Virus record (IMG/VR): IMGVR_UViG_3300032266_001037
Span: 1 to 43,341 of that record
DNA length: 43,341 nt
Origin: a virus
Lineage: Duplodnaviria; Caudoviricetes
Direction: 5' to 3' (one strand)
Shown here: piece by piece, positions 4,643 to 21,919 of the stretch
Position numbering within the stretch: position 1 is the stretch's first letter
How the letters are laid out: each line of letters opens with the position of its first letter
Translations under genes and position numbers: made by a program
The notes under the pieces: generated by a model
Databases searched by the model: none
What the model was told of the DNA's origin: nothing
Seen by the model: only the letters and a program-made list of their open reading frames with translations

Positions 4643-4853
4643 CGTTATTGTTAACCTCAGTAATCGTGTTCAAAAAAGACTTAACCGTGCATAGGTGTGA
4701 ACTCTGAATAAGTAACACTTTAAGCATTCTACGTTTATCCTCTGAATCATTGTTAATTAGGGAAGACCCCAACTGACTTTGAGCATCGGATAGTAGATAC
4801 ATCGCTGTGCTGACGTGTTCAATCGCATTTAGTATTAGCTCGTTCGTATCCAT
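4632..4853 (-). CDS. Hypothetical protein (probable start MDTNE)
   Basis: ATG overlaps the polymerase stop (TAATG). Confidence 0.55.
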   Translation of the reverse strand: MDTNELILNAIEHVSTAMYLLSDAQSQLGSSLINNDSEDKRRMLKVLLIQSSHLCTVKSFLNTITEVNNNDDV

Positions 4854-6727: not shown

Positions 6728-6729
6728 AA

Positions 6730-7014
6730 TCAGTCCCCATCTATCGGCTCTCCATCTGTGCAATCGGCAAGGTCGAGGGCTAAGGAAAATATTGCCCTCA
6801 AATCATCTATACAAATTGCCAGTAGATATTTGTCCTCAACCCCTATGGTGGGCAGCGTACGAATTATCGGGATATAGATGAATCCCGTTACTGAGTCTTT
6901 GTTGCCTCGATAGTCTCCTACATCTTTGAAGATGGACAATTGTCCATCCTCGTCATCTTGCACTGCAAATACTACCTTACTTTCCAGGTTGATTTCCACA
7001 TTACTACTACTCAT
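6730..7014 (-). CDS. Hypothetical protein, 94 aa
   Basis: AAGGAG upstream of the ATG; abuts polA. Confidence 0.65.
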   Translation of the reverse strand: MSSSNVEINLESKVVFAVQDDEDGQLSIFKDVGDYRGNKDSVTGFIYIPIIRTLPTIGVEDKYLLAICIDDLRAIFSLALDLADCTDGEPIDGD

Positions 7015-7092: not shown

Positions 7093-7200
7093 TTAAAACG
7101 ACACGTCCGAAGCGGACGATGTCCACACCTATACTCTGGTCTAATATTAAAACGACACGTCCGAAGCGGACGATGTCCACACCTAGATTCTGGTCTAGTA
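7093..7200. repeat. Tandem duplication of a 54-bp unit, each copy containing a GC hairpin
   Basis: TTAAAACGACACGTCCGAAGCGGACGATGTCCACACCTA.A.TCTGGTCTA.TA at 7093 and 7147; hairpin CGTCCG-AAG-CGGACG in each. Confidence 0.95.
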
Positions 7201-7788
7201 TTAAAACTCATCATCGAATTCCTCGTCAACCCAGTCATCAAACGAAACGTGCTCATAGGTATCTATAGGGATGTCGGTTAACCATTCATTTGGAATAGAT
7301 GGACTCATACTTTCTGGGGTTATCAAAGGTGCCCATTTAATGCCCAGATTCGTTGCCCACTCTCCATAATTCATTTTACGGTTAGGAACTTTCAGCTTGT
7401 AATTCTGAAAGACTATCCGATAATTTGAGAATTGTACTGGATGCTGATGGCGAAAAGTTTTTACGAGTGTGGGGAATTTGTTCTCCATCATTCCCTTTAC
7501 CTCTATCAAAATTCCGTTTAGTGTCTGGAAGTCTGGCATCCACTGATACAACCGCATCGTCCTCAGTGCCAGTAGCATCTCTTCCGTTAGTACCTTTCCC
7601 CCCACCTTCACTGGGTTTATCACATTCGTACTGTACGATTTTCTGGGGAGGTATAGATTGAACCTGGTCTTGTTCCGTTGAATCAACGGATAGTACCTCT
7701 CCATTAGACTCCGTTCTATCCCTGAATCGTAGCGTATCTTCTGACCATCTATTGTCAGATAACCCTTGTGGGCATTCTTGCCTACCAT
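7201..7788 (-). CDS. T7 endonuclease I-like Holliday junction resolvase
   Basis: YDSGIE, then PDF...ILIEVKG (PD-(D/E)xK), and YGEWA..LGIKWA, matching the gp3 pattern; GAGGTG upstream. Confidence 0.85.
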   Translation of the reverse strand: MVGKNAHKGYLTIDGQKIRYDSGIERSLMERYYPLIQRNKTRFNLYLPRKSYSTNVINPVKVGGKVLTEEMLLALRTMRLYQWMPDFQTLNGILIEVKGMMENKFPTLVKTFRHQHPVQFSNYRIVFQNYKLKVPNRKMNYGEWATNLGIKWAPLITPESMSPSIPNEWLTDIPIDTYEHVSFDDWVDEEFDDEF

Positions 7789-9157
7789 ATTTCACCTCAC
7801 TGAATGAGCCTGATAACTCATCATAATACAGAAAGACCTTACCTCGTTTACCGCGCTTGCGATTCTTTAATACATGGATACGTACTGGCTGCTTGGGGTC
7901 ATCTGGATTCTTCATTGCCCAGATGTTAAACGCGAGTTGCTCGAAGGACGAGCCAAATATCGCGTCCCGTTGTGTCGGTTCTTCATACTCCTCCCAATCC
8001 GACGGAATTTGATGTGAGTTTTTGTATTGAGCTTTAGATGGTTCTTGACTGCGCTTGTTATGAGACACTACCAAGATATGGATTGGGAATCTCTTCACTA
8101 CATCACATATCTTGTGTAGATATTTCCTAATATCGGATACAGGGTCATCCGATAAGTCAAGTAACCAGGTTATGTGGTCTATCACAAAGAAACGACATCC
8201 ATACATGATATGAGCGCACTCTATTGCCTTACATACCTCATCGATGTCTGCCCTAACCTTAGACAGGATGACCTTCTCATGCACCCTGTTGGTCTTACTT
8301 AAAATATCATCCATTGTGTTAGTGACATCACCAGTATCCGAGTAATGTATTGATTCACCTAGCATCAATGGGACAAGTTTAAGTATTTGTTCAGGAACGG
8401 ACTCCTCAAATGATATGTAATAGGGTAGTTCACCCTGCAAAGACACTTTATGCAGGAAATCACGCGCGAGGGTAGACTTTCCCCTACCAGGACTGCCTAA
8501 TAGGAGTGTCCATTCGTACATTCTGAACACACACAAACTATCTAGGTTATTAAAACCCGTAGAGATAGGTTTCCCCTCTGACTTACCAATGTGGGATAAC
8601 ATCTCACTCTCTAATTCAGGTTTTGTCCAATCAAAATCAGACACCTGAACGAGCGCGGACTCAATGATATCCTTGAATTCTTTAACCAGACCATTCAGGT
8701 TGTATTCGTAGGGGTTATCAATTCCCCCATAATCTACCAGTCTTGCTTGAGCCAACCTGAAACCTAATATTTTTCTAGCTATTTTTCCTCCATCGAATAG
8801 TAGAACAATCCTCTTATATCTGAACAACCAAGACACGTTTAATCTAAGCGCATCCTGGATATTTTCTGTGGGGATTCCTACAGAATCTAATCCCGTCATT
8901 GCATAGGCAGCTATTGTATCCCACTCATCCTCACAAACTAACAAAGTGTCTGTGGTCTTGCAGGTTTGCATCCCAAATAGCTCTGTAGAGGGGGATGGTA
9001 GCCATTCTACATCATCCCCAACTACTTTTGTTACATCCGTACCATAGGGGAAAAACACCTTACCAGGAGAGGTTTTAACCCCATACAATGACATGATTTG
9101 GATAGGAATTTTCAGCTTATCACACTGCTCTTTGGTTGGCGCGATAATTTTTTCCAT
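7382..9157 (-). CDS. T7 gp4-like primase-helicase (SF4 helicase intact, primase degenerate)
   Basis: Walker A GSPGRGKS, ISFEE, FVIDHI, VVSH, KNR; N-terminal TOPRIM remnants LFG, CEDEWD, LLFDGG. Confidence 0.92.
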   Translation of the reverse strand: MEKIIAPTKEQCDKLKIPIQIMSLYGVKTSPGKVFFPYGTDVTKVVGDDVEWLPSPSTELFGMQTCKTTDTLLVCEDEWDTIAAYAMTGLDSVGIPTENIQDALRLNVSWLFRYKRIVLLFDGGKIARKILGFRLAQARLVDYGGIDNPYEYNLNGLVKEFKDIIESALVQVSDFDWTKPELESEMLSHIGKSEGKPISTGFNNLDSLCVFRMYEWTLLLGSPGRGKSTLARDFLHKVSLQGELPYYISFEESVPEQILKLVPLMLGESIHYSDTGDVTNTMDDILSKTNRVHEKVILSKVRADIDEVCKAIECAHIMYGCRFFVIDHITWLLDLSDDPVSDIRKYLHKICDVVKRFPIHILVVSHNKRSQEPSKAQYKNSHQIPSDWEEYEEPTQRDAIFGSSFEQLAFNIWAMKNPDDPKQPVRIHVLKNRKRGKRGKVFLYYDELSGSFSEVKYGRQECPQGLSDNRWSEDTLRFRDRTESNGEVLSVDSTEQDQVQSIPPQKIVQYECDKPSEGGGKGTNGRDATGTEDDAVVSVDARLPDTKRNFDRGKGNDGEQIPHTRKNFSPSASSTILKLSDSLSELQAESS

Positions 9158-9160
9158 AAC

Positions 9161-9616
9161 CTAGGGAACCTTTGGATAAACTATCTCCAACAAAACTCTA
9201 TCTCTCAACGAAAATATATTCGCTGTTGGTTCACAATTAAACGCCACCCTTTCAATGAAGGACACACAATTAGCGTAGTTACTGTTAGTTAAAGAGCGAA
9301 TTAACGATGCAATTGTTATCTTCAAATTGTCTTTTCTATAATCATGGATTCTCCTAAGTATCTCTGTAGTTTGAAGATAAGACATCGGAAACTCGTAACT
9401 TTCGACTAACTTTCCAACATCCTTTAATGGGGTATCAGATAGTCTAATTCCTAACCCAGATAGGTCTATATAATATTCATACTCTTTGCGTTTTAAGTGC
9501 AAGGAAACATGAGCATATCTGTAGGAAGACCTACCAGTACATGACCCAACAGTGGCAATTAGATAACCTAACACACCTGTTGCACTATGAAAATTTATCC
9601 TTAAGAAATTCTCCAT
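9161..9616 (-). CDS. Permuted papain-like (NlpC/P60 superfamily) protein
   Basis: His before Cys order: YAHVSL ... ANCVSFI, typical of permuted NlpC/P60 (YaeF/LRAT/PPPDE-like) domains. Confidence 0.55.
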   Translation of the reverse strand: MENFLRINFHSATGVLGYLIATVGSCTGRSSYRYAHVSLHLKRKEYEYYIDLSGLGIRLSDTPLKDVGKLVESYEFPMSYLQTTEILRRIHDYRKDNLKITIASLIRSLTNSNYANCVSFIERVAFNCEPTANIFSLRDRVLLEIVYPKVP

Positions 9617-10520
9617 TTCTTATCTCCTTTCTCATCATCGCTAACAAATCGGATAGGGAGTATGCGCCTACGAATAAGTTTTCAGCAGGCACGTTATCTA
9701 CTGTCTTTCCATCCTCTGAGAAATCATCATCCCCCAACTCGGATATGTTTGGCATATTGGATGCCATTTCATGTACGAATGAATGTCTCAACAGATTTAT
9801 ATACATATTCAAAACGCGACTATGTGTTACCGGGCGCGCTTTGAATTCTGTCTCACCTAGGAAAAACTTTTCGTACTTTTTCCTATGATTGTCTGCCCAG
9901 GTCTTCACGGCTACAGCAGGATTCCATTCTCCTACTCTTAGTAACCCTTCGAGCCTAGAGATGTCGTTATAGGAAACACTCACTTTTGTGTCCTTGTCTC
10001 CCCCATAAGACCACCTTGGCGCGTAGTCACTATACCTTGGCTCTTTTCCTCCATTCTTATAATGGACATACATTGAAAATGATATTCCCTTATGGCGTAA
10101 CTTGCCCTCGGTCTCCCAAGAGCAATATGCCATATGATATCCCCTAAGAGCTTTCTTGGTAGCAATAACATCATTCCACTCAGGAGGGGTGTACCTATGT
10201 GGTTTTTTGTAATTCTTGATAGAAAGCGCCAGGTCAACTATCCTATCCGTCATTGGATAGTATCTGTAAGAAATTTGATTGTCGTTAGGATTAATCTCTT
10301 TCCACCATTCCGTCTTGAAATGGTACTTCACCTTCCATCTTTTGACCACTGAACGTATCACTAATAGCCTCAACAAAAACCAAATCTGTTGCCGCTCATG
10401 GTCTGTTATCTTTGATTTTTCTTCATCGGGTAGTCTCAACTTTGCTAATAGTTTAATCCGCCCTTCGTCACCTAAATCTTCAATTTCTTGCAACAACTGA
10501 ATATTGTTTAGTACTCGCAT
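9585..10520 (-). CDS. Hypothetical protein, 311 aa, basic and aromatic-rich
   Basis: Long ORF in the replication operon; no motif recognised. Confidence 0.75.
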   Translation of the reverse strand: MRVLNNIQLLQEIEDLGDEGRIKLLAKLRLPDEEKSKITDHERQQIWFLLRLLVIRSVVKRWKVKYHFKTEWWKEINPNDNQISYRYYPMTDRIVDLALSIKNYKKPHRYTPPEWNDVIATKKALRGYHMAYCSWETEGKLRHKGISFSMYVHYKNGGKEPRYSDYAPRWSYGGDKDTKVSVSYNDISRLEGLLRVGEWNPAVAVKTWADNHRKKYEKFFLGETEFKARPVTHSRVLNMYINLLRHSFVHEMASNMPNISELGDDDFSEDGKTVDNVPAENLFVGAYSLSDLLAMMRKEIRNGEFLKDKFS

Positions 10521-10521
10521 A

Positions 10522-10668
10522 TCACTTACCCGTGTCTACATCGCGGTTACAATTAGGGCATTTTCCTGAAGACTTTTCTAACTCCCACTGTCGAGTCAGA
10601 AAATTATAATACGCATTCGACATACTCATTGCGCCACAATTCGCACAACTGACAATCACTTCTCTCAT
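10522..10668 (-). CDS. Small Cys4 zinc-ribbon protein, 48 aa (missing from the ORF track)
   Basis: GGAGG SD, then MREVIVSCANCGAMSMSNAYYNFLTRQWELEKSSGKCPNCNRDVDTGK*, with two CxxC pairs. Confidence 0.8.
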   Translation of the reverse strand: MREVIVSCANCGAMSMSNAYYNFLTRQWELEKSSGKCPNCNRDVDTGK

Positions 10669-10742: not shown

Positions 10743-11798
10743 TTATCCCTCAACAATTCTTGGTTTTCTAGAAATACGGACGGAGCTATTCCTCTGAGAT
10801 TTTGGTCTATTTGGTTTCTCTGGTTCTATTTTAACACGTCCAGAACCTTTTACACGGGTTGTTTCTTCGATTGCAGAGAACTCCTTGGGAAGAACAAAAC
10901 TCCCATTGTCTATTGCAATCCGAAATAATACAGAACATGCTCCTCCCATTGAATTTGTGGCGCGTGAGAAGTTTGTCACTCCTGTATTCTGCACTGCTTT
11001 GTGAGACTCAGGAATGTGTTCTACACAAAACAGGATAGCAGATTCTAGGAACTGTTCTGACTTTATCAAATACTTGAAGTCAGACCTATAGCCCTTCATG
11101 TCGTTGAAAAATGCAACACAGTAAGCGCCAATTGTCTCGTCCGATAATCCCTTGTGGTCTAGTTGTTTATCTTTCACTAGTGCCACGGATATCATCCTAA
11201 GCGCGTCCGATAGTTGTTTGCTCTGTGACCCAGACAATCCTCCCATGAAATACTGGGTAATCAATTCTGATGGGGATTCTACATTCACACCTTCGGAACT
11301 GTGTTTTATGCTTGCACCTTCTATCGCCGTGCAGCCACGGGATTTGTTGGACAGAATAATCCTCACTGGATTACTTTTAAGCACGAAACAGGGTAATACG
11401 AATTTGTCTACAAAATCCTCCAGACCCAAATGGGTGAGGATGAATAGAATCGCAGCTATCCGATGTCTACCAGACTCCAGAATCATAGGGTCTGTCCCTA
11501 CTACAATCGGATTGATGAGTGGATTCTTGAATAATAAACCAAACTCACCATACAGCACGGTAAGTACTTTTGCTTCCATGATGGGGCGTTGGACGACTGA
11601 GTCTTCTATGCTCATAAGGGTCTTCAGGGATATGAACTTCACGCTATCCCCCTCTATTCCTTCGATTACAGTGTCCTGCACGAACTGTAATAGCTCAGGA
11701 GACCCTAGATTGAACGCTCCTCTATAGGACTCCAACATCCTGTATATCTTCTGAGTTTGGCTGTCTTGCAGTTCTCTAATGACATAATCGGTTTTCAT
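10743..11798 (-). CDS. Protein with an N-terminal ParB/sulfiredoxin-like domain
   Basis: INPIVV...ILESGRHRIAA matches the ParB-N PIxV...GxHR pattern; basic C-terminal tail; AGGTGG SD before ATG 11798. Confidence 0.6.
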   Translation of the reverse strand: MKTDYVIRELQDSQTQKIYRMLESYRGAFNLGSPELLQFVQDTVIEGIEGDSVKFISLKTLMSIEDSVVQRPIMEAKVLTVLYGEFGLLFKNPLINPIVVGTDPMILESGRHRIAAILFILTHLGLEDFVDKFVLPCFVLKSNPVRIILSNKSRGCTAIEGASIKHSSEGVNVESPSELITQYFMGGLSGSQSKQLSDALRMISVALVKDKQLDHKGLSDETIGAYCVAFFNDMKGYRSDFKYLIKSEQFLESAILFCVEHIPESHKAVQNTGVTNFSRATNSMGGACSVLFRIAIDNGSFVLPKEFSAIEETTRVKGSGRVKIEPEKPNRPKSQRNSSVRISRKPRIVEG

Positions 11799-11940
11799 GT
11801 GATATACCACCTATAAATCTTTTTTGGCAACCTAGGATACTTTGGACACTTTAACAAAATACCCACAATCAATTCTGCGGGGTCTAGAAGGCTCAGGAAG
11901 GTCGGTCTAGGGGGGAGCCTTTACGATGTATCCTGAAGGA

Positions 11941-11970
11941 TATTATATACACCTTGTAGGGTATTACAAA
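11941..11970 (-). promoter_or_regulatory. Putative sigma70 promoter for the replication operon
   Basis: Minus strand TTGTAA-N16-TATAAT upstream of the ParB-like gene. Confidence 0.45.
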
Positions 11971-12047
11971 CGCATGTAACCCATATTGATAACACGTAGA
12001 TAAGCGCGAGTGTTAAGGGATACCATAAATATTTCTTGGTGTACTGA

Positions 12048-12077
12048 TTGACAAAATCAGGGTAGTATCTGTATAAT
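12048..12077 (+). promoter_or_regulatory. Consensus sigma70 promoter, module copy A
   Basis: TTGACA-N18-TATAAT. Confidence 0.85.
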
Positions 12078-12083
12078 CTAATT

Positions 12084-12171
12084 AGCCGCCGAAGGGTTTG
12101 ATATATAAGAAGAGCAGAAGTAAAACGAAACCTGTAAAACGTGAAAACACGAAATACAGGTTTCATTTTTT
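12084..12171 (+). ncRNA. Putative ~90-nt small RNA, copy A
   Basis: Runs from the consensus promoter to the hairpin GAAACCTGTA...TACAGGTTTC-ATTTTTT; no ORF; shares GCCGAAGGGTTT and GTAAAACGTGAAA with copy B. Confidence 0.55.
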
Positions 12172-12198
12172 ATGACAACCCATAGGATGAAGGTTTAC

Positions 12199-12240
12199 AA
12201 GATATAGATTCCAAGCGAATAGCGTAGGAATCTATATCTT
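12199..12240. repeat. 14-bp-stem hairpin with conserved loop, copy A
   Basis: AAGATATAGATTCC-AAGCGAATAGCGTA-GGAATCTATATCTT; inverted paralogue at 21609-21652. Confidence 0.9.
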
Positions 12241-12262
12241 TCTTGGTATGAGATTTAGTCAA

Positions 12263-12914
12263 AGGGTTATAGGACATACGAGTTTGGATAGGTGTTATAG
12301 TGCGTAAGCCCTATATCCATATCTGGAGGATTGTACTCTAGGGATTACCCTGTAACCATATGGATTTATATCTAATACCCCATATATAATATATATATAT
12401 ATAATATATATAATAAATGATTGGATATAGGGTTATTCGACTAGAATAACCCTATATTCAATCGTATGTCTAAGGGTCATAGGGTTATAGGACATACGAG
12501 TTTGGATAGGTGTTAGGTGTTTCAGTCTAGGTGTTAGAGTCTACCCTATAACCCTGTAACCCCTATAGATTCTATGACCCAGTAACGATTAGACTCTATG
12601 ACCCAGTTACTACGCGCTTAAATAACCCTTATTGTGTAAGCCCTACATGGAGTCTAAGGTGTTTGTACTCTAGGGATTACCCTGTAACCAGTAGACCCAA
12701 TCACCCAGTAATTACGCGCTTAGATAACCCTTATTGTGTAAGCCCTAGACTGTATCCTATAACCCTATTCTCTAGGGATTACCCTGTAACCATATGGATT
12801 CTAGATTATATTAGATACCAATACCCCATATATAATATATATAATATATATAATATATATAATATAATCTATTGGATATAGGGTTATTCGACTAGAATAA
12901 CCCTATATCCAATC
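12263..12914. repeat. Origin-like repeat field: iterons, TA tracts and long palindromes
   Basis: 35-mer at 12263 and 12481; TCTAGGGATTACCCTGTAACCA at 12337, 12669 and 12771; ~45-mer at 12601 and 12703; TA-rich tract plus 19-bp-stem palindrome ATTGGATATAGGGTTATTC-GACTA-GAATAACCCTATAT(T/C)CAAT at ~12420 and 12871. Confidence 0.9.
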
Positions 12915-12950
12915 TTCTATCTAAGAGTGATATATCTACTCAGATATTCC

Positions 12951-13163
12951 TTATAGATTAGATTCCATAGAATTATCTATCGGAATATCTTTCGTAGATA
13001 TACAGTCTGCGCGCGTGGAGACCTGTTTTTCCGTGGAGACCTGTGTTTCTGCGCGATATATCACCTCTGGTTGATGGTCTATTGTATCGGGATGCTCGTC
13101 ACCCCGGTAGACGTGCCCGTTGATGATGGTCATACCGATGTTATTGATGGGAATGTTGCGCAT
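12951..13163 (-). CDS. Small early hypothetical protein
   Basis: Last ORF of the early cluster; internal QVST repeat. Confidence 0.5.
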   Translation of the reverse strand: MRNIPINNIGMTIINGHVYRGDEHPDTIDHQPEVIYRAETQVSTEKQVSTRADCISTKDIPIDNSMESNL

Positions 13164-13164
13164 G

Positions 13165-13329
13165 TTATTTTGTGCATTTATCTGTTATGCACGTGTTGTT
13201 GGTTGTATAATGGGGTTGCTGATTGTGGGATGCAAGGGTGGCGAATCCGATTAAGAGTTTGATGAGGAGCGCGCCCAAAATCCAACATAGTAATATCGTA
13301 TTCCAGGAAATAGATGATGAGGTTGTCAT
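13165..13329 (-). CDS. Small membrane protein
   Basis: GGAGGG SD before MTTSS; one hydrophobic segment. Confidence 0.5.
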   Translation of the reverse strand: MTTSSSISWNTILLCWILGALLIKLLIGFATLASHNQQPHYTTNNTCITDKCTK

Positions 13330-13527
13330 AATACCCTCCCGATTGTAGGGGTAATGGGATTTAGGCACAATTGCCTACAACCCTTGGTTCGTTCTAGTAA
13401 ACAGACGCGCGTGGTTTTGGATATAGAACTCACGCGCGTCTGGGTGTATCGTTCATGTCTGGATGATTGTTAAAACAGACCTCCGGAGCCTACCATTGTC
13501 AATAAGATATCCATTGTTGACAATGGT

Positions 13528-13743
13528 TCACGCTGCTATTGATAGTAATCGATTGATGCCATCATTTTGAATTGTTGCCTGGATAAGCGCGCCCGTGACG
13601 AGGTCGGTCACAGGTAGGTCGAACTCAGTCTTGTCTATCCCATTGCAGATAACAATGTGGTAGATAGTGCTGTCGTACTGGGTTACACTGTATAGCACAG
13701 GGTAACGGTCAACAAGCACTGTAGTCGCAATTAACGTTCTCAT
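13528..13743 (-). CDS. Small early hypothetical protein
   Basis: GGGAG SD; overlaps the upstream stop. Confidence 0.55.
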   Translation of the reverse strand: MRTLIATTVLVDRYPVLYSVTQYDSTIYHIVICNGIDKTEFDLPVTDLVTGALIQATIQNDGINRLLSIAA

Positions 13744-13943
13744 GGCGTAGTCTCCCAAGTGTTTTTAAGGAATGTTTCTAGGTCTGTCTCGTATGCGTCT
13801 AGTGACACATAAGAAACTCTATCAGGGATGTCTCGAACAAACTCGTAGGTCTTGTCTTGTGGGACGAGCTTGATACAGTTGGTGGGTGTTCGCATCACCC
13901 ACACTTGACTGTTCTGTATGCACCAATCATACTGGTAATCCAT
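13740..13943 (-). CDS. Small early hypothetical protein
   Basis: GAGG SD; TAATG coupling to the upstream gene. Confidence 0.55.
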   Translation of the reverse strand: MDYQYDWCIQNSQVWVMRTPTNCIKLVPQDKTYEFVRDIPDRVSYVSLDAYETDLETFLKNTWETTP

Positions 13944-14197
13944 TAGAACCTCGCGTTGTGTGTGAGTGTAACTGGGCATTCAATGTTGTACCGACCCAGT
14001 ATCTTTGGGTCATACAACAGAATATCTGTTGACGCCAAATCGGATTCTCCTATGAGCTGGCTCACCAACTCATTTGCACAAGATGTTGGTATTAAACAAT
14101 ACTCATAATTCGTACCTGAGTATAGTTTGTTGAAACTCATCTCATCTACTAGATGTAAACCTCGTTTTGGAACAGAAACCAAGTATAAAAATGTCAT
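13943..14197 (-). CDS. Small early hypothetical protein, 84 aa
   Basis: GAGGA SD before the ATG. Confidence 0.6.
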   Translation of the reverse strand: MTFLYLVSVPKRGLHLVDEMSFNKLYSGTNYEYCLIPTSCANELVSQLIGESDLASTDILLYDPKILGRYNIECPVTLTHNARF

Positions 14198-14209
14198 TGT
14201 TCCTCATCT

Positions 14210-14452
14210 TTACTCATCACCAAAATCTAAAGTCAATTCCGTGTTGGCATGATAGAACAACAGGATGCTAGTAGGGCTTGCGTGTTGCATATCACTGAAT
14301 TCCTGGTCATTGAGTTGCATCCAAGTGTCCATATCAGGAGGGTATGGATACATTCTCTTTGTAGATTCGTCTAGAATAGGTGTCATATGTCCTCCAATTT
14401 GGGTAATTTGTTCCGTTTTTGTCCCAGTCATTAGGTTAATTTGTCCCATCAA
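14210..14452 (-). CDS. Small early hypothetical protein
   Basis: Packed ORF; internal GGAGG-preceded ATG (MTPILD) may be the true start. Confidence 0.5.
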   Translation of the reverse strand: MMGQINLMTGTKTEQITQIGGHMTPILDESTKRMYPYPPDMDTWMQLNDQEFSDMQHASPTSILLFYHANTELTLDFGDE

Positions 14453-14643
14453 TTCTTAGATACTAAGAATAATTCCGGGTACATTAGGAAGGGTTTTACA
14501 GAATCATATCCCCTCACGATGTTCACAACCTTGTGGTCTGACTTGCGCTCGACAACGTACCATCTGTCATCTAGTGTGTGCATGTCACCCTCCATTATTT
14601 TTATGGAATGTAGGTTACTAAAAAACAATAAACCCATACCCAC
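14449..14643 (-). CDS. Small early hypothetical protein
   Basis: Probable start MHTLDD after GGAGGG. Confidence 0.45.
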   Translation of the reverse strand: MGMGLLFFSNLHSIKIMEGDMHTLDDRWYVVERKSDHKVVNIVRGYDSVKPFLMYPELFLVSKN

Positions 14644-14748
14644 TGAATAGACCTAATACTATGGTGGAGACACCGCCTTCTTAGGGCGTGTCCCCATTGA
14701 ATAAATAGTATTCAATGGGCTGGGTTGTTTTGTATGTAGTCTAGGCGT

Positions 14749-15012
14749 TCACACTACGTTTCCATGCAGGTCGTATACAATCGACACGCACAATTCGCGC
14801 GCTTCATTGATAGTGCCTGCTCCCTGTAGGTATTGGACGTAGAACAGGTCTGGTTCATCTTCTGTGGAACAGTCCATGAAATATATTCCGTCGTATCCAG
14901 CGCGTTTTGCTTGGGCACTCAGACTACGGATGCGTCTGTCTGATAGGTCAGGAACACTGACCAACTCAGATGATACGAAATAGTTGTGTTTGGGACGAAA
15001 GACATGAAACAT
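14749..15012 (-). CDS. Early hypothetical protein (start MFHV)
   Basis: ACGGAG SD before ATG 15012. Confidence 0.6.
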   Translation of the reverse strand: MFHVFRPKHNYFVSSELVSVPDLSDRRIRSLSAQAKRAGYDGIYFMDCSTEDEPDLFYVQYLQGAGTINEARELCVSIVYDLHGNVV

Positions 15013-15169
15013 AATTTTCTCCGTTAACAATAAACCTATACCTATTGAATATTCCCTATTCAATAGGTATAGACATACTGTTTTCATGCTCTAGTATGTT
15101 TGACACAATTTTCTCCAAAGGTAGGTTACTAATAATGATTGGGGAAGGTGTGTATCCTCCCCCCATCAT

Positions 15170-15352
15170 TCAATCTTCACTCTCTGGATAATCGGCTGGG
15201 TCATATACCCAACAGTTTGTCCAGCATCCGTCTTCGTCATAAACTTTGTAATGCACTTCGTTTTCAACTACTGTAACTTCCACTCGCGCGCCTTTACTTT
15301 CTAAACGTGCGACGTAGCTTGTATGGTCTTCATGCTCTAGGATATTAAACAT
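15170..15352 (-). CDS. First early gene, acidic 60-aa protein
   Basis: ACGGAG SD; downstream of the strong promoter at 15553-15581. Confidence 0.65.
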   Translation of the reverse strand: MFNILEHEDHTSYVARLESKGARVEVTVVENEVHYKVYDEDGCWTNCWVYDPADYPESED

Positions 15353-15389
15353 AATGTTCTCCGTGGGCTGTCGTGTCGTGTGTATGTTG

Positions 15390-15545
15390 GGAAGGGAACC
15401 CGTCCGCTGGACGTTTGGGTTGATTGGTACCGTATGAAGAGGTTCGTTTACTGCTCTTCATCTCTTGGTGCCTAGGCTCTTGAGCGCTCATCCTGCCCCG
15501 GTATGTTAGTGACTTCCGGTTGTCTGTTTGGTTCTCTTCCCCTCA
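15390..15545 (-). ncRNA. Structured 5' leader RNA of the early operon
   Basis: Closing stem GGGAAGaGAACC / GGTTCcCTTCCC enclosing hairpins ATGAAGAG/CTCTTCAT, CGTCC/GGACG and CCGG/CCGG. Confidence 0.45.
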
Positions 15546-15552
15546 TGCCTAT

Positions 15553-15581
15553 AATATAACAAGCCAGGATGGAAGTGTCAA
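15553..15581 (-). promoter_or_regulatory. Strong sigma70 early promoter
   Basis: TTGACA-N17-TATATT with an extended -10 TG. Confidence 0.85.
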
Positions 15582-16355
15582 TCCCCTATAAAAACGCCTG
15601 TAATGCAATGGTGGTAAGGGTTCCAGCCATTTCAACTTTCATTGATAAGAAACGCTGATGGAAAATTCGTAATTTTTGTGATTGTGGATTTTGGGCTTAT
15701 GGATACGTGTAAATAATAGATTTGAGGGTACCAAAGATTGAAGTTTTTGTCAAATATTCATTCCTTATGGTACAGTCGCTCCCCGATACAGATTCCTTAT
15801 ATGACAAGGGTTTTGGGCGTTTTAGTTAACAATATCTTATGGGAATCCTGAATACGAGAAGTTAAACTTATCTGATTTGAAATTGAAATGGAAAACCCAA
15901 TCTTTCATAGGAATTAGTAATAATATTAGTTAGTGCAGTGGATTTTAACAGTAACCATCAGAAAGATTAATCATATAAATAACATTAATAGGCGCGCGCG
16001 GAGACCTGTGATTTTGCTGATATAAGATATCTATTATTGTCTGGCGATCGAATATAGGGTTATCTATTAGATAATTAGAACATTATATTTTGACGAGATA
16101 GATTTGAATGTTTTATATCAGTAATCCTTATTTGTCTGGCGGTATAATTTTGAATGTTTTATGCGCGCGCATCCGTCAAAATGTTTGATAAGAATAAGTG
16201 ATAGTACAAGTGTTCGATCGCCACATATTCTGATATATGGATTGCTTATATCAGAAATTGTGATATATGGATTGCTTATGGGCAAATGGGGGGTATAAGA
16301 AAAACTTATACCCTCTATCATCACCATAAGTTTTTTGGATGAGTGGGTACCCAAT

Positions 16356-16405
16356 AAAAAAAAAACGCAGAGGATTCTACGTCGCTTGCAGAGTAGAATC
16401 CTCTA
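16356..16405 (-). terminator. Terminator of the parM-dcd operon
   Basis: 12-bp stem AGAGGATTCTAC / GTAGAATCCTCT followed by a T10 run on the minus strand. Confidence 0.75.
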
Positions 16406-16476
16406 TTTATTGCCAACCCCTATAAAGGGTTTGTGGGAGAGAACAAGGTTATAAGAAACAAACTCCCACAAACACC

Positions 16477-16530
16477 ACAATCACGACAATCACGACAATC
16501 ACGACAATCACGACAATCACGACAATCACG
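16477..16530. repeat. (ACAATCACG)6 tandem 9-mer
   Basis: Six perfect copies; the last overlaps the dcd stop codon. Confidence 0.97.
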
Positions 16531-17092
16531 CGCGCGCGGTTATGACTTCGTGCGGTTGATTCTGATACTTACCTCCTCTTGTGTCATAGTCCACAGAACA
16601 CACATTGCCCTCAAAAAACAGTGCTTGGACAATCCCCTCATCCGCGTATATTTTGATAGGAGAAGACGCGCTATTAAACAGTTCTAATGTGAGATGACCT
16701 TTCCATCCTGCCTCACCAGGAGTCGTATTCACTATCAATCCACAGCGCGCGTAAGTAGACTTTCCAATGAACAATGCGGTGATGTCAGAAGGTATCCTCA
16801 ATAGCTCCTTTATGACCCCTAGCGCGTAGGTTTGAGGGGGAATGATATAGTATATACCCGTGTCATCAACGTGCGGATACTGGACGTACAATTGGGTTTG
16901 AGCGTCAAAATGTTTGGGGTCAATAGTAGACGCGGTATTCTTGAATATCTTCAAGGGTACATCAGAAGATAAACGTAAATCGTACCCAAAAGAAGACTGA
17001 CCATAACTAATAGCACCGTTCCTAACCAGAGTAGATTCATAAGGTTCAATCATCCCAACTCTACTAGAGATTTCTTTGTCATTCAATAGCAT
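16526..17092 (-). CDS. dcd: dCTP deaminase
   Basis: ISYGQSSFGYDLRL, GKSTYARCG, PGEAGWKGHLTLE, GKYQNQ; probable start MLLNDKEI. Confidence 0.96.
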   Translation of the reverse strand: MLLNDKEISSRVGMIEPYESTLVRNGAISYGQSSFGYDLRLSSDVPLKIFKNTASTIDPKHFDAQTQLYVQYPHVDDTGIYYIIPPQTYALGVIKELLRIPSDITALFIGKSTYARCGLIVNTTPGEAGWKGHLTLELFNSASSPIKIYADEGIVQALFFEGNVCSVDYDTRGGKYQNQPHEVITARA

Positions 17093-17276
17093 CACATTCA
17101 CTTCCGTAGTAAAGGTCATCCATGAGTACTTGATACGCGCGCGTGTAGGTCTCAATTTCTGATGCAATTACAACCCCATAGGGGTTAACCACTTCAAATT
17201 GAACAACCCCTTCAACCATGTTCCGTATAGTGTAACCGCTAGTCTTCTTCATCGTAATCATAGTCGTCATCATCAC
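17079..17276 (-). CDS. Small hypothetical protein
   Basis: Fills the gap between the T5orf172 gene and dcd; start uncertain. Confidence 0.4.
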   Translation of the reverse strand: MMMTTMITMKKTSGYTIRNMVEGVVQFEVVNPYGVVIASEIETYTRAYQVLMDDLYYGSECDAIE

Positions 17277-17691
17277 ATTCCTCTACTTCTGCACTGTTGA
17301 AAAAGTCATACATTCCATTGAATACTAATCTAAGCGCGTCTACTTGTTCCATTGTGAATTGGAACCATTCCATCGTGTATTGCCGACCATAGCCAAAACC
17401 CTTAGAGATTTGTGGATTATTGGAGCAGTGGGAGAATACCTGATGGAGCGCGCGTTCTATTTTGTGAGCAACCTCTGCATTATTGAACCAAAAGATGTAA
17501 TAGACCCCAAGAGTGGAGTCACCATTGGGGGATAGGGAATTGTGCCGTCTTAGCTTTTTCATCCGTTGCTCTATGTTTGTCGTAATGCCGATTTTGTATC
17601 GGTCATACAAGACACTGTATAGGAGATATAGGGCACACATTCCTGTATCAGGTTTTGGACATGTTTTTTGCGCGTCTGATGGTCTCAACAT
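17239..17691 (-). CDS. T5orf172/GIY-YIG-like nuclease domain protein
   Basis: YLL...YKIGIT.NIEQRMKKL...IERALH..F...EWF. Confidence 0.85.
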   Translation of the reverse strand: MLRPSDAQKTCPKPDTGMCALYLLYSVLYDRYKIGITTNIEQRMKKLRRHNSLSPNGDSTLGVYYIFWFNNAEVAHKIERALHQVFSHCSNNPQISKGFGYGRQYTMEWFQFTMEQVDALRLVFNGMYDFFNSAEVEECDDDDYDYDEED

Positions 17692-17693
17692 GG

Positions 17694-18782
17694 CTATTTC
17701 TTCTTACCAATAGGTTTGTTTAATGGAACAACTGAAGGTGTTTCTGGGGTGACGTAGCCAATACCACGCTCCTTTTTAATGCGACGGTAGGTAGACATAT
17801 CTGGCAGTAGCATAATCGCATTGTCTACAACACACGCTCGATAAGGGTTACGTTCAGATAGGACATTGAAATAATTTACGGTGCCTGGTGGTACACGTTG
17901 TGCGTTTTCTAAGGACTGTAGGTGCTTGACTGCCAATTCACCCTTTAGAACCATCGTCATATTCGCACGTAGGTCTGACTCGCCTTCCATTCCCAAGGTT
18001 TTGACCAAATAGTTGACTCCGGTCAGAATGATATTTAGGTTTTGTTTCCGTCCAATGGACAGTACATCTCCCACTACAGGAGTAACCTCTGTTTTCTTCG
18101 CCGTCCATCGATACTCATCACAAACAATGACTAATGGTTCATGGTAATCGGGGTTAGAGTAGCGCTCCAACAAGGATGCGTTCACATATTCAGAGAATGA
18201 ATTCATGGATTCCGCATCAAAATTGTTCCCTACCACTTCCCAACCCAAGAATTCCTTATCCTCTACTTCCACAGTAGGAGATAAGTAGACTTGACGTGTA
18301 TCTGCCCCTAGGACGCGCGCGCGTAAATCACCTATGACCTCAGCAACGAGGGTTTTACCTGTACCCGTAGGACTAAATACCCCAAAGTGAGGCTTTACTT
18401 TGGGTTGATTGATGTAATTTTTTACGAAATCATCCCAAGATAGGATTTTAAGCCCATCAGGGACACTGATTTTGTCTTGATTATTGATTGGGAGTGGTTC
18501 TAATGGTGTGTCATCCTTATGCTCCCACGCTTGTTGCACGTCTATCTGGTCATTGAGGTCAGTAATTGCCTGAATCTTACGTCTTAGATGGGTGGATTCT
18601 TTGTCTAGAAGACCTACCACACCAAATGTAAGGGACGCGCCTACTAACCCTGTGATTAATCGGTTGAGTTTACTGTTAGTTGTAGTCGTTAGATAGAAAA
18701 TGGTGTACGAACACGCTAGTGCAAGTACACCACAACCAATCATCGTATTAATGGAACGTTGGCGCTCCTCTAATAGGGTCAC
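17694..18782 (-). CDS. Membrane-anchored FtsK/HerA-superfamily P-loop ATPase
   Basis: Two N-terminal hydrophobic segments; Walker A SPTGTGKT, Walker B IVCDE, arginine-finger motif GRKQNLNIILTG. Confidence 0.8.
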   Translation of the reverse strand: MTLLEERQRSINTMIGCGVLALACSYTIFYLTTTTNSKLNRLITGLVGASLTFGVVGLLDKESTHLRRKIQAITDLNDQIDVQQAWEHKDDTPLEPLPINNQDKISVPDGLKILSWDDFVKNYINQPKVKPHFGVFSPTGTGKTLVAEVIGDLRARVLGADTRQVYLSPTVEVEDKEFLGWEVVGNNFDAESMNSFSEYVNASLLERYSNPDYHEPLVIVCDEYRWTAKKTEVTPVVGDVLSIGRKQNLNIILTGVNYLVKTLGMEGESDLRANMTMVLKGELAVKHLQSLENAQRVPPGTVNYFNVLSERNPYRACVVDNAIMLLPDMSTYRRIKKERGIGYVTPETPSVVPLNKPIGKKK

Positions 18783-19204
18783 AGCAGACCTCCCATAGTC
18801 ATAATCGACAGCTTAAGTAAGGTAGAGAAGGTAATCTCTCTGTCGCAAAACCCGATGTAGGCAACACAACCAATCACAAGCGCGATGATGGTAGATGGAA
18901 TTGCGATATACCACCCCATGATGGGTTGTAACAACCAAAGACTGTATTTAATGGTCTGTCCGATAAATAACCACCCAGGCAAGCGCGCCACCCCCAATAG
19001 AGTATGGGGAAATGACATGATTTGTCGGAGGTTGTAGAAGGACTGTTTGGAATTGTCTACCCGTGTACCCCAAACCGCGTAGGATTTCCATCCATCTTGT
19101 AGTTGAGGTTGATTGAATTGCCCTGTATCCCTATCAATCTGTTTAGTAGGGTCAAAACCTATCGCGTTGATTAGACCCCCTCCATCCGGCTTACTAGATG
19201 CCAT
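18779..19204 (-). CDS. Membrane protein (2-3 TM)
   Basis: Hydrophobic C-terminal half; stop overlaps the ATPase start. Confidence 0.7.
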   Translation of the reverse strand: MASSKPDGGGLINAIGFDPTKQIDRDTGQFNQPQLQDGWKSYAVWGTRVDNSKQSFYNLRQIMSFPHTLLGVARLPGWLFIGQTIKYSLWLLQPIMGWYIAIPSTIIALVIGCVAYIGFCDREITFSTLLKLSIMTMGGLL

Positions 19205-19376
19205 AGTCGATTCTCTCTTTTAACAATCCAATAATGAAATGTCTTTGTGAGTAGTAAGCTGCGTTCAATAAGTGCGCTAACTCTCTCAGTTGTTCTGTGG
19301 TCATCTTATCAATCTGAGTGTCTGTGTTTGCCTTTTGGAACGCAAGCTCTAAAGGCAACTCCGCGCTACTGTCCAT
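19194..19376 (-). CDS. nblA: NblA-like phycobilisome degradation protein
   Basis: 60 aa; ELPLELAF....DTQIDKMTTEQLREL matches the NblA pattern LSLEQQF....xxQVxxMSxEQA; AGGAG SD. Confidence 0.75.
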   Translation of the reverse strand: MDSSAELPLELAFQKANTDTQIDKMTTEQLRELAHLLNAAYYSQRHFIIGLLKERIDYGI

Positions 19377-19641
19377 CACAATTACTCCTGGTGGTACGGT
19401 GGAACCATCCAAAACCCTCTTCCTGTTGAATACATCCCAATGAACCGCGCTCGGTGGTAGAGGTTTGTTGGGTCAGTTGGAGCATCCTCATGTTGTTGTT
19501 TAGCTCTTGGATATCACGGGATATAGAGGATTGATTGTAGAGAACAAAACAACCCAGTAACCCGAACGCAAAGGGGGATATTGCTAACCACATAACGAGT
19601 AGCTTCATGGTGTAGTCCCATTCGGAATTAGAATTCATCAT
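19366..19641 (-). CDS. Single-TM protein with a coiled coil
   Basis: Hydrophobic segment followed by a heptad-like region. Confidence 0.6.
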   Translation of the reverse strand: MMNSNSEWDYTMKLLVMWLAISPFAFGLLGCFVLYNQSSISRDIQELNNNMRMLQLTQQTSTTERGSLGCIQQEEGFGWFHRTTRSNCDGQ

Positions 19642-19984
19642 AGTCTACAGGCTCCCTAATATTTTCAAGTGCAAAAAGCGCGCGGCAAATCAGGTGGGTT
19701 AGATGTGACTCTAGACTCTCGTAATCCCGTGCAGTGATAGATGGAATGGTAGCAATCGCGTGTTCGACAAGATGTAAAAGATGGTCTTCTACAGAGATGT
19801 TTCTGTAGCTGTCGGAACCGTACTTATCGCTACCTTCCTGTAGAACTTCTAGAACAAATGCCATTGTAGTCCAATTGATGAGCGACCAGTCTCTCTTTAA
19901 CTTAGAGCCATCAGGTGTAGTGGACACAAAATCATCATCGTTATGATGTTTCCAATCGGGGTCAAATTTAATCGAATAAGTCAT
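19628..19984 (-). CDS. dATP/dGTP diphosphohydrolase N-terminal domain (DUF5664) protein
   Basis: K.DWSLI...VL.EG.DKYG..SY...HL..H....ESHL.H..CR pattern. Confidence 0.75.
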   Translation of the reverse strand: MTYSIKFDPDWKHHNDDDFVSTTPDGSKLKRDWSLINWTTMAFVLEVLQEGSDKYGSDSYRNISVEDHLLHLVEHAIATIPSITARDYESLESHLTHLICRALFALENIREPVDYDEF

Positions 19985-20198
19985 TTCTGCTTAACTCCTG
20001 TAGAAGGTCATTCGTATGTCTAACGGTTTGCTGTGGCGGGATTGTGTGAGATAGAGTACTGGTTGGTTCAGATGACATGAAGTTACAGACCAGGGATTCC
20101 AAGAGCGCTTGCGGAGGAATCCCTATGTCGAACGCTCTATCTAGGAACTTGCGCCACAACTTCGGATTAATTCTTACTCTGTTGTCTGTGGAACGCAT
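19968..20198 (-). CDS. Ribbon-helix-helix-like DNA-binding protein (ParR-like adaptor)
   Basis: RVRINPKLWRKF...A...GIPPQALLESLV fits an RHH; immediately downstream of, and overlapping, parM. Confidence 0.6.
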   Translation of the reverse strand: MRSTDNRVRINPKLWRKFLDRAFDIGIPPQALLESLVCNFMSSEPTSTLSHTIPPQQTVRHTNDLLQELSRNDLFD

Positions 20199-21147
20199 CG
20201 TAAATCCCTTTGACATTATCTGATAGAGGATTAGGGGATAGTAGGAACATCTTACCTACTCCTGGTTTGTTCATGACCGCTTTGATGCAAGGTGCAACGG
20301 TGAACGCGCCTCCACCAGTCACTAAGAAGTTTGTTACTTCCCTGTTCTGAATCGCCTGTCGGTAGTCATTAAGCACCAAGTTCTGGAATATGTTTTTCCA
20401 GAATAGGGGTGTGTAGTAGTCGATGTACTTCTGGATGGATTCCCCAGTGTGACCAATCCTATAGGTCTGATTCTCTAAGCAATTGAAGAATGACTCCACA
20501 CTCACCATGATTCCGTTGTTTAGGTTGGTCACTTCATTATCGTGCTTAATGAGGTTCGCCAAATAAATCATCCCTTGCTTTGGATAGGTAGATGAGCGCA
20601 TCACCTCTCCAGAACTATTCTCAATCAGTGTGGTCACAACCGTACCGCCACCAATATCGATAACCACAGTGTAGCCTATATCAGAAATTGAACCAGAATT
20701 ACGTGCGAGGTACCATGAACCAAAACCCTCTTGGTAAACCCCTACCACTTTTAAGCGCGTCTCAAATAGGTGCCTGTCCTTCTCCCAAACATAGATATTA
20801 TTTAGCGCTTTGACTAGGTCATGTTGGTAGGAGGTCACTAACTCTGGGACTTGAATCACTATCTCTGTCGTTGGTTCCACCGTACCAAAGTCACTTAAGG
20901 CTGATAGGAGCAAGATGATTGACTCTGATATAGACGCGGTCTTGTCTGACTCCGACTGTAAGCGCACCATGTCATATTTAAGCGCGCCCACTCCTGTGTG
21001 ATAGATGAGGTCATTGATAACAATTACCCCAGGTGTTCGGAGTAGATTGTATCGACCATTCACAGACGCGATAACTGACTTGATAGATTTAATGGAGTGA
21101 CCATTGTAACCTACCGTTGAAGAGTTACCAATATCAAATGCGTACAT
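20167..21147 (-). CDS. parM: ParM/StbA-family actin-like ATPase
   Basis: Phosphate-1 FDIGNSST, connect-1 QEG, phosphate-2 IDIGGGT, adenosine LVTGGGA. Confidence 0.92.
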   Translation of the reverse strand: MYAFDIGNSSTVGYNGHSIKSIKSVIASVNGRYNLLRTPGVIVINDLIYHTGVGALKYDMVRLQSESDKTASISESIILLLSALSDFGTVEPTTEIVIQVPELVTSYQHDLVKALNNIYVWEKDRHLFETRLKVVGVYQEGFGSWYLARNSGSISDIGYTVVIDIGGGTVVTTLIENSSGEVMRSSTYPKQGMIYLANLIKHDNEVTNLNNGIMVSVESFFNCLENQTYRIGHTGESIQKYIDYYTPLFWKNIFQNLVLNDYRQAIQNREVTNFLVTGGGAFTVAPCIKAVMNKPGVGKMFLLSPNPLSDNVKGIYDAFHRQQSKN

Positions 21148-21365
21148 TAGTATTTCTCCACATGAACGAGTTTGAGTAATTCGTTTAAGGGCAGTCCCGA
21201 TAGGACTTTAGACAACTCCAACTGACTGTATAGGTAAGGAGCAGTCTGAGACACCTTGTTAGAGACCGCACGTCCCACTATATCTTCTAATTCTTTGATG
21301 GGCACTACCACATCTATCTCTAGGTGAATGGTTCCACTGTGTTCAGTAAGCACTATCTTGGACAT
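21147..21365 (-). CDS. Hypothetical protein, first gene of the parM operon
   Basis: GGAG SD; TAATG coupling to parM. Confidence 0.6.
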   Translation of the reverse strand: MSKIVLTEHSGTIHLEIDVVVPIKELEDIVGRAVSNKVSQTAPYLYSQLELSKVLSGLPLNELLKLVHVEKY

Positions 21366-21608
21366 GAGGTTCTCCATAATTGGGATATCTATATGATAAC
21401 AGTCATTGGGACAAATTATCCATATCTATAGGATTGTTTACGTTATCAATAAGGAGTGCCTTATTGGCAATAGCATGCTCCGGGTTATGAGGGTAATCCC
21501 CAGGAAACAAACATCTTTGTATGGATGTGGGGCTTACACTCACAGGGTTATTCTCTACTCGTCGTATAAAACACTAAGAAGGTATTTTTCTAGATGTATG
21601 AATAAGAG

Positions 21609-21652
21609 ATAAATATAGATTCCTACGCTGTTCGCTTGGAATCTATATTTAT
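21609..21652. repeat. 15-bp-stem hairpin with conserved loop, copy B
   Basis: Minus strand ATAAATATAGATTCC-AAGCGAACAGCGTA-GGAATCTATATTTAT. Confidence 0.9.
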
Positions 21653-21682
21653 GCATTTATCCTCTTGTATGTTTCTACGTAC

Positions 21683-21778
21683 AAAAATACCCCCACATAA
21701 TTTGATTACATGGGGGTAAATTGCATTTCACGTTTTACTACTTTCATTTCCACATACTATTAAACCCTTCGGCACCTT
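21683..21778 (-). ncRNA. Putative ~95-nt small RNA, copy B
   Basis: Runs from the promoter at 21785-21814 to the terminator UACCCCCAUGUAAU-CAA-AUUAUGUGGGGGUA-UUUUU (fully paired with G-U only on the minus strand). Confidence 0.55.
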
Positions 21779-21784
21779 AATTTG

Positions 21785-21814
21785 ATTATACAGATAATAC
21801 CCCATTTTTGTCAA
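21785..21814 (-). promoter_or_regulatory. Consensus sigma70 promoter, module copy B
   Basis: TTGACA-N18-TATAAT; near-identical context to 12048-12077. Confidence 0.85.
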
Positions 21815-21919
21815 TCAGTACTCAAAAATATTTTCTAGGTATCAGTAGTCACCTATCCACAATAGCTATAATTATAGTGTAATCTACCATAATTATCTAT
21901 CCCTATGAGCGTCTAATTC

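Follow-up and report, generated by a model that had tools for sequence, protein, structure and literature searches.

The mitochondrial replisome is of the T7-phage type; animals have lost the primase of Twinkle and prime from RNA polymerase, and termination at the mitochondrial origin OH is not known to involve a release hairpin. Here we describe a pair of inverted and diverged non-coding modules, A and B, on a phage genome of 43,341 nucleotides (hereafter the window), which is the entire virus record IMGVR_UViG_3300032266_001037 of IMG/VR and whose ends cut within the tail-fibre gene. An initial annotation of this DNA had read the modules as candidate origins, one per strand, primed by the host RNA polymerase. 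We find that the modules are real and that no known family explains them. Tentatively, and stopping a little short of calling it probable, we favour the view that they are host-RNA-polymerase-primed origins replacing a degenerate primase; A would be the chief origin, and B a minimal second site at which the other strand is primed.

Several described systems invite comparison. For mitochondria, RNA polymerase primers, premature termination and RNase H processing at OH have been described (PMC11057760, PMC6299598). With OH and OL, served by Twinkle and Pol gamma, the phage would share a T7-type helicase with a lost primase, a family A polymerase and two unequal, strand-specific sites (PMC6299598, PMC11057760). 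Unlike OH and OL, the phage sites are paralogous and have double-stranded sigma-70 promoters and intrinsic terminators, and the enzyme proposed is the host multisubunit RNA polymerase. The T4 origins oriF and oriG resemble the modules in having a promoter for host RNA polymerase, with a stretch downstream in which the transcript would act as leading-strand primer, and T4 oriE has iterons, according to PMC3016281. The oriV of the IncQ plasmid RSF1010 (ssiA/ssiB) is described as having two opposite-strand hairpin signals and leading-strand-only copying (PMC8567376), although in the phage the hairpins are 9.4 kb apart and the copying mode is proposed. RSF1010 differs in that it has its own primase, RepB', holds both signals in one origin, and has no promoter or RNA. 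IncQ membership was considered and rejected: there was no match to the RepB'-type primase, RepC or RepA families, and no plasmid DNA matched the module. The order of promoter, RNA and displaced-strand hairpin is shared with ColE1, whose RNA II is far longer than the module RNAs and meets no terminator before the origin; unlike at ColE1, no antisense partner was found at the phage modules. RNA priming of ColE1 is stated in PMC3016281. The phage SPP1, as presented in PMC5737612, has two origins (oriL and oriR) with iterons and an AT-rich element, and a helicase without a primase of its own; in our phage, repeats and AT-rich element occur together at A only. SPP1 differs in being independent of RNA polymerase, in having a known initiator, and in origins without a conserved promoter-RNA-hairpin block. 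Finally, rolling-circle ssoA origins share with copy A a hairpin with TAGCGT in its loop, but the phage modules have no RS_B, no long stem, no such hexamer in B and no Rep/dso family match. By analogy, the pair would most likely work as an R-loop-primed origin pair, and it falls outside both ssoA and IncQ.

Structure of the twin modules

The top inverted repeats of the window are the module copies themselves: 12019-12084/21778-21843 (66 nt, 80% identical), 12202-12243/21607-21648 (42 nt, 93%) and 12304-12351/21490-21537. The promoter TTGACA-N18-TATAAT, matching at 12 of 12 positions, occurs twice between 10.5 and 22.5 kb, both times in a module, and no further exact site exists anywhere in the window. 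The inverted, diverged copies with perfect promoters that the initial annotation had reported are therefore borne out and, judged by sequence only, both copies have the promoter upstream of the start that is expected of an R-loop origin.

Module A, on the plus strand, begins with the promoter block (12019..12084; -35 at 12048-12053, -10 at 12072-12077), as located by alignment and promoter scan. The predicted RNA A of about 88 nt (12084..12171), whose start is placed from the -10 box, has a purine-rich 5' half and contains two motifs recognised in the A/B alignment, GCCGAAGGGTTT (12088..12099), which includes a CCGAAGG mini-hairpin motif, and AGTAAAACG (12119..12127). It ends in a terminator-like hairpin (12127..12171; 10+4 bp with an internal loop, then a T run) that a simple terminator scan did not list. 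Next come the conserved-loop hairpin (12199..12240; 14-bp stem, 14-nt loop) and a 45-bp unit, A1 (12304..12348), of the form GTAAGCCC-N29-GGGATTAC. Module B, on the minus strand, has the same elements in the same order and at similar spacing: promoter block at 21778..21843 (-35 at 21814-21809, -10 at 21790-21785), predicted RNA B of about 97 nt at 21683..21779 (GCCGAAGGGTTT at 21773-21762, AGTAAAACG at 21739-21731, terminator at 21718-21683), conserved-loop hairpin at 21609..21652 (15-bp stem, 14-nt loop) and unit B1 at 21493..21537.

Conservation between the copies is mosaic. The blocks agree at 53/66 (promoter), 12/12 (GCCGAAGGGTTT), 9/9 (AGTAAAACG), 35/36 (hairpin core) and 36/48 positions (repeat unit), whereas the linkers (11/22, 16/37 and 37/79) and the terminators (22/50) are only 43-50% alike, which points to selection on separate blocks after duplication. 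Both hairpin stems are perfect (z about -6 as DNA) and start 28-31 nt beyond the T run, on what would be the displaced strand. The changing outer stem claimed earlier is confirmed by two double changes (G-C to A-T and A-T to T-A). The 45-bp unit occurs four times against 0.00 expected, with identical spacing in all four; its two halves form an imperfect inverted repeat, which in B1 carries one double change.

Other parts of the first description needed correction. Of the two RNA motifs that it had paired between the copies, GCCGAAGGGTTT stands; the GTAAAACGTGAAA chosen in A (12134) lies within the terminator stem, and the positional counterpart of B's motif is AGTAAAACG at 12119. The two repeats are present but are not separate, GTAAGCCC and GGGATTAC being halves of one unit. 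Nor are the twins equal beyond their shared blocks, since A continues to 12913 with elements that B does not have: an AT-rich tract of 89% AT (12366..12420), which is a candidate unwinding element; palindrome P1 with a 14-bp perfect core (12425..12457); units A2 (12636..12680) and A3 (12738..12782), both on the plus strand, giving three units in A and one in B; a second tract of 86% AT (12801..12870); and palindrome P2 with a 19-bp stem (12871..12913), which is terminator-like on both strands and ends small minus-strand open reading frames (ORFs).

The first 50 nt of each predicted RNA are 68% purine; 70% is reached by 0.6% of genome windows. Both RNAs may form a 5' GAAG hairpin (pair probability 0.41-0.52). 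CCGAAGG and the loop motif GCGAAYAGC both fit the pattern of DNA mini-hairpins (shuffle chance 1.1% and 0.5%, the class having been set after the motifs were seen), which are described at the G4 and RSF1010 priming sites; PMC13037366 names CCGAAGG for RSF1010 ssiA. This likeness is a hint only, as CCGAAGG could also form a small 5' RNA hairpin.

The argument from ssoA and its CS-6 hexamer, on which the proposal of RNA priming had partly rested, did not survive. TAGCGT occurs 14 times in the window against 12.8 expected, carries one change in the loop of B, and represents the non-template strand of the sigma-70 promoter; nor is there an RS_B-like site by the definitions of PMC8860593 and PMC4598088. 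At the GCCGAAG motif, which is unpaired to the distal arm in the predicted fold of A and weakly paired in that of B, the RS_B of PMC4598088 is matched with 8-9 mismatches in 17. No rolling-circle Rep or nick-site family was found among the 54 ORFs, of which some remain orphans. Rfam gave no match at gathering score in the window, the hairpin matches being below threshold.

Contigs of sequencing run X1 in Logan cover A (11933-12292) and B (18502-21852) with letters identical to the window, and X1 may be the window's own source sample. No recombinant joint between A and B was seen in these contigs, which at about 8x depth would miss rare inversions; a single apparent joint is a B contig aligned onto A. 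The inversion sites that the initial annotation had offered as an alternative thus left no sign in this one sample. One low-depth X1 contig has an end at 21360 that matches nothing in the window, and an adapter at 11933, one among several coverage breaks, was not taken as a genome end.

A degenerate primase, a relative without B, and strand asymmetry

The window encodes a T7 gp4-type primase-helicase of 591 amino acids (7382..9157, minus strand). Compared with its nine closest relatives, this protein lacks the entire zinc domain, about 15 basic-loop residues, a portion of the KD motif, and the second Asp of DxD together with the seven residues after it, but retains its helicase motifs. All nine of these relatives have the zinc domain and DND, and DxD is kept in all 59 other best matches examined (55 by pattern, 4 by eye). 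The degenerate primase reported earlier therefore holds against the relatives. From the established role of the missing motifs, primase activity is predicted to be lost, and the window showed no other primase-like frame. A 48-amino-acid zinc-ribbon ORF (10522-10668, minus strand; weak Pfam matches) was tried as a detached primase zinc domain and rejected (E 3.2 to the relatives' domain). In four relatives (P0144, P0146, P0148 and P0150), Thr or Ser replaces the motif-IV glutamate, with zinc domain and DND kept, which may mean that the primase is decaying more widely in the clade.

One member of the clade, the locus L102, could be compared at the DNA level, for the B region only (n=1); for the six relatives nearest by actin gene (P0002-P0007), the collections scanned gave no DNA. 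Its TerL is 59% and its capsid protein 76% identical to those of the window, and the gene order around B is the same; at the syntenic site, however, about 50 bp with an ordinary promoter separate the first late gene from the actin gene, and module B is absent. The TerL of L102 is identical to P0022, whose longest contig measures 51,936 bp, and the fully intact primase P0292 lies on a contig of equal length; by this indirect link, one primase-positive relative is probably without B.

Further copies were sought widely. In IMG/VR, an exact hairpin scan gave no match, a motif-pair scan six that are all chance, and a scan for the 45-bp unit five single matches, none with a module. BLAST of the module against phages and plasmids returned nothing real, and the module was not found in five cultured relatives. 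No module lies within 10 kb of the terminase at 124 terminase-bearing loci (1.4 Mb), which apart from L102 and one partial match of 50% are at most 46% identical and whose coverage excludes the A region of close kin. A sequence-free scan for the anatomy found an 11-bp stem within 260 nt at 4 of 113 promoter-like sites, two of them A and B and the other two unrelated. No paper describing such a module turned up in the open-access literature, and none dealing with origins or loss of the primase in these phages.

Strand asymmetry was measured at 2230 four-fold sites as the balance of G and C, corrected for the means of strand and codon. The genome was treated as a circle of 44.2 kb, a length that includes an estimate for the tail-fibre segment missing from the record. 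A single switch fits best at 11.5-13 kb, with r 0.07 and p 0.007 by block shuffling; it falls at 12-13 kb in 241 of 300 bootstraps, and the best free second switch lies at 34 kb, half a circle from A. Among models, a theta step gave r 0.070, two-way displacement from A (sawtooth) r 0.059, and two-origin displacement r 0.04-0.05. The signal is weak; it speaks for A being an origin on a circle but does not tell these models apart. Equality of the two origins, one to each strand, is not favoured, there being no switch at B (r 0.012).

Proposed priming by host RNA polymerase and its alternatives

With PolA and a helicase but a primase predicted not to work, the phage would depend on an outside supply of primers, whether by host RNA polymerase, by host DnaG or from recombination ends. 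Priming by RNA polymerase with A as the main site is favoured because two perfect promoters would yield only short non-coding RNAs, on opposite strands, with hairpin and unit downstream and one of them at the skew switch. Origin function and RNA priming, as first proposed, are favoured by the degenerate primase, by L102 without B and by the synonymous skew switch at A; the parts of the proposal that concerned ssoA and equal origins are not. The best-conserved blocks lie downstream of the terminator (35/36), which is more than a free RNA would need, and A has the anatomy of an origin in its fixed-spacing repeats and AT tracts.

The proposed mechanism would start with host sigma-70 RNA polymerase making an RNA of 90-100 nt at each module. 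In some events the purine-rich 5' half would stay hybridised, aided by the displaced-strand hairpins, and the terminator would cap the remaining transcripts. The RNA end, trimmed by RNase H or by the polymerase exonuclease, would then be extended by the phage PolA, the conserved-loop hairpin and 45-bp units would serve to load either the phage helicase or an enzyme that primes the opposite strand, and on a circle both strands could then be copied in leading-strand mode. More doubtful is the wider proposal that a T7-type lineage independently took the animal-mitochondrial route: its gp4/Twinkle-type helicase would have lost the primase, host RNA polymerase would prime at a gained pair of paralogous origins, each specific to one strand, and the circle would be replicated without Okazaki fragments.

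Several observations weigh against priming by RNA polymerase. The terminators are its chief difficulty: intrinsic terminators release RNA, and a free small RNA therefore fits at least as well as a primer. The DNA next to the promoters is 63-66% AT, compared with 57% for the genome, and the tracts of 86-89% AT lie deeper, in A only; T4 oriF and oriG, in contrast, have an AT-rich unwinding element (PMC3016281), directly downstream. They also share no sequence, and T4 relies on an active primase for its lagging strand. The loop motif GCGAAYAGC exceeds the mini-hairpin type published for the G4 origin (PMC13037366) by one base. A sigma-70 promoter with CCGAAGG occurs in 60 unrelated viral stretches of IMG/VR, none with the rest of the module, in 32 families (the family grouping is our own, and the count has no enrichment control); the motif is therefore not origin-specific. 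As to the primase, the motif-IV glutamate is absent from 4/9 close relatives, so that the contrast with a clade-wide intact primase is not clean, and Pf-WMP3 and Pf-WMP4 have no zinc domain in the aligned frame (EG and DxD being kept), yet have no modules. In the skew analysis, p rises to 0.24 if two-fold sites are used and to 0.07 if all sites are, the same scan in five cultured relatives gives r 0.02-0.08, and without the block at 32-34 kb the best point shifts to 9.5 kb, with 12.5 kb second. Besides lacking a switch at B, the data fit a one-origin step better than three two-origin displacement models in 87-89% of bootstraps, although the models are not separated.

In the 32 promoter-CCGAAGG families (loci L155-L214), CCGAAGG follows a perfect sigma-70 promoter after 8-14 nt, the next base is G in 18/32, and only 4/32 have a best fold with a GAAG tetraloop. 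In one of these families (L156, L163, L189 and L213), the element runs antisense into a gene, twice in one contig.

The alternative that fares best, which we nevertheless consider rather unlikely, is that A, with its three fixed-spacing units beside two AT tracts, is a theta origin of the iteron and AT-rich kind. As in SPP1, a phage initiator would open it and host DnaG, working through the primase-less helicase, would prime it, with B as a second initiator site and the RNAs acting as regulators or in transcriptional activation. It should be noted that SPP1 uses its own helicase with host DnaG, and that its initiator binds two origins independently of RNA polymerase, according to PMC5737612. 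The skew also fits best a single bidirectional origin at A (step, r 0.070; sawtooth, r 0.059), and the terminators imply released RNAs. This explanation leaves aside why promoter, RNA motifs, hairpin and unit are linked in the same order and at similar spacing in both copies, and it meets the difficulty that we know of no contact of a gp4-type helicase with DnaG. No initiator was recognised either: the candidates are a 311-amino-acid orphan upstream of the helicase (9585..10520, minus strand), which could also be a loader and has no relative and no usable structure model, a ParB-like protein and an 82-amino-acid protein, none of them matched to an initiator family.

Distinctly less likely is that the modules are control elements, that is, paralogous small RNAs with operator- or centromere-like sites, A heading the replication operon and B the virion operon, and that they act, perhaps, with the actin-like partition genes in a plasmid-like state. 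Each module does stand back to back with one of these major operons, which run leftward from 11810 (replication) and rightward from 21920 (virion), and the RNAs have a possible 5' GAAG hairpin and a terminator. The neighbouring genes are suggestive as well. Next to A, and divergent from its promoter, lies a ParB_N-like protein of 355 amino acids (10743..11810, minus strand), which is a lead only and has no Pfam match. Downstream of B, also on the minus strand, lie an actin-like (ParM/Alp) ATPase (20167..21147; phrog_691, 3.5e-19) and then the 82-amino-acid strand-helix-helix protein (19968..20216; model pLDDT 58), a candidate adaptor or binder of the 45-bp unit. Of the components of a ParMRC phage-plasmid, the ATPase is present; for a ribbon-helix-helix (RHH) adaptor with a parC array there is this strand-helix-helix in a low-confidence model, for which fold searches gave no clear match and an RHH identity is unconfirmed. 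L102, however, has the actin-like gene without module B, there is no match to an integrase or repressor family among the 54 ORFs, and primase loss and skew switch are left unexplained. Nor is there a convincing antisense target in the phage: complementarity of at least 11 nt was not found for RNA A and amounts to three scattered stretches of 11-14 nt for RNA B. A promoter of its own seems to precede the actin-like operon, as a separate extended -10 site (21393..21422, minus strand; a weak match of 9/12 with TG). A search for a LexA-type box over the -35, by its familiar consensus, stayed below the thresholds set.

That the hairpins or units are inversion sites, or signals for genome ends or packaging, is highly improbable: the copies are inverted, with a near-identical 42-bp core, and the genome end of cultured relatives, between the first late and the first early gene, lies where B sits, but the X1 contigs, at about 8x depth, cross B and the core of A without a recombinant joint, no recombinase family is matched among the 54 ORFs, the actin operon of L102 has the same orientation as that of the window and, since L102 has about 50 bp at the position of B, the genome end of the clade is probably elsewhere, near 15.6-16.4 kb.

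Genome setting and implications

The window encodes a T7-like head and tail, the primase-helicase, a family A DNA polymerase with 3'-5' exonuclease (4853..6763, minus strand; family match), Erf-like and Cas4-like proteins and the actin-like ATPase. By terminase, its nearest cultured phages are Pf-WMP3, PP, CHP58, TR020, A-4L and Pf-WMP4 (32-40% identical), and the host is therefore probably a cyanobacterium. The genome falls on a long branch in an uncultured clade with TerL about 60% identical. Compared with Saffermanviridae (the Pf-WMP3/A-4L gene set and two-arm layout), its virion and replication genes are homologous, and leaving formal demarcation aside we take it to be an uncultured relative of that family. 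A contig of 38.5 kb with a related terminase (36%) was found within a Calothrix genome assembly.

The second large non-coding region, 15350-16500, contains an 11/12 promoter (15581, minus strand) ahead of small ORFs and a terminator (16364-16383) and, from comparison with L102 and the cultured relatives, is the likeliest genome end. Tandem ACAATCACG repeats follow at 16459-16530, directly after the stop codon of the dCTP deaminase gene. Hairpins of a dispersed family, GACACCGCC...GGGCGTGTC, lie at 7100-7177, 14669-14692, 28012-28035, 40345-40368 and 41033-41056, several within or ending genes, and are possible terminators or processing sites. At 7093-7200 there are two 54-nt tandem copies (94% identical), each with a minus-strand TTCG-loop hairpin, just 3' of a T7 endonuclease I-like gene (PF05367; 7201-7788, minus strand) that shares the last 400 bp of the helicase gene, read in a different frame. 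A LAGLIDADG-type endonuclease (28398-28874, plus strand) sits between the scaffold and major capsid genes. The 151-amino-acid ORF at 9161-9616 (minus strand) matches no family and has His and Asn-Cys motifs reminiscent of permuted papain-like enzymes.

If priming by host RNA polymerase is true, this phage, with its recent primase loss and its primase-positive relatives, would provide a small bacterial test system for how a T7-type replisome survives the loss of its primase. Even if A is instead an SPP1-like origin, the modules would mark where replication starts and where the initiator binds in an uncultured clade resembling freshwater cyanophages; in the open-access literature we found no origin described for this clade.

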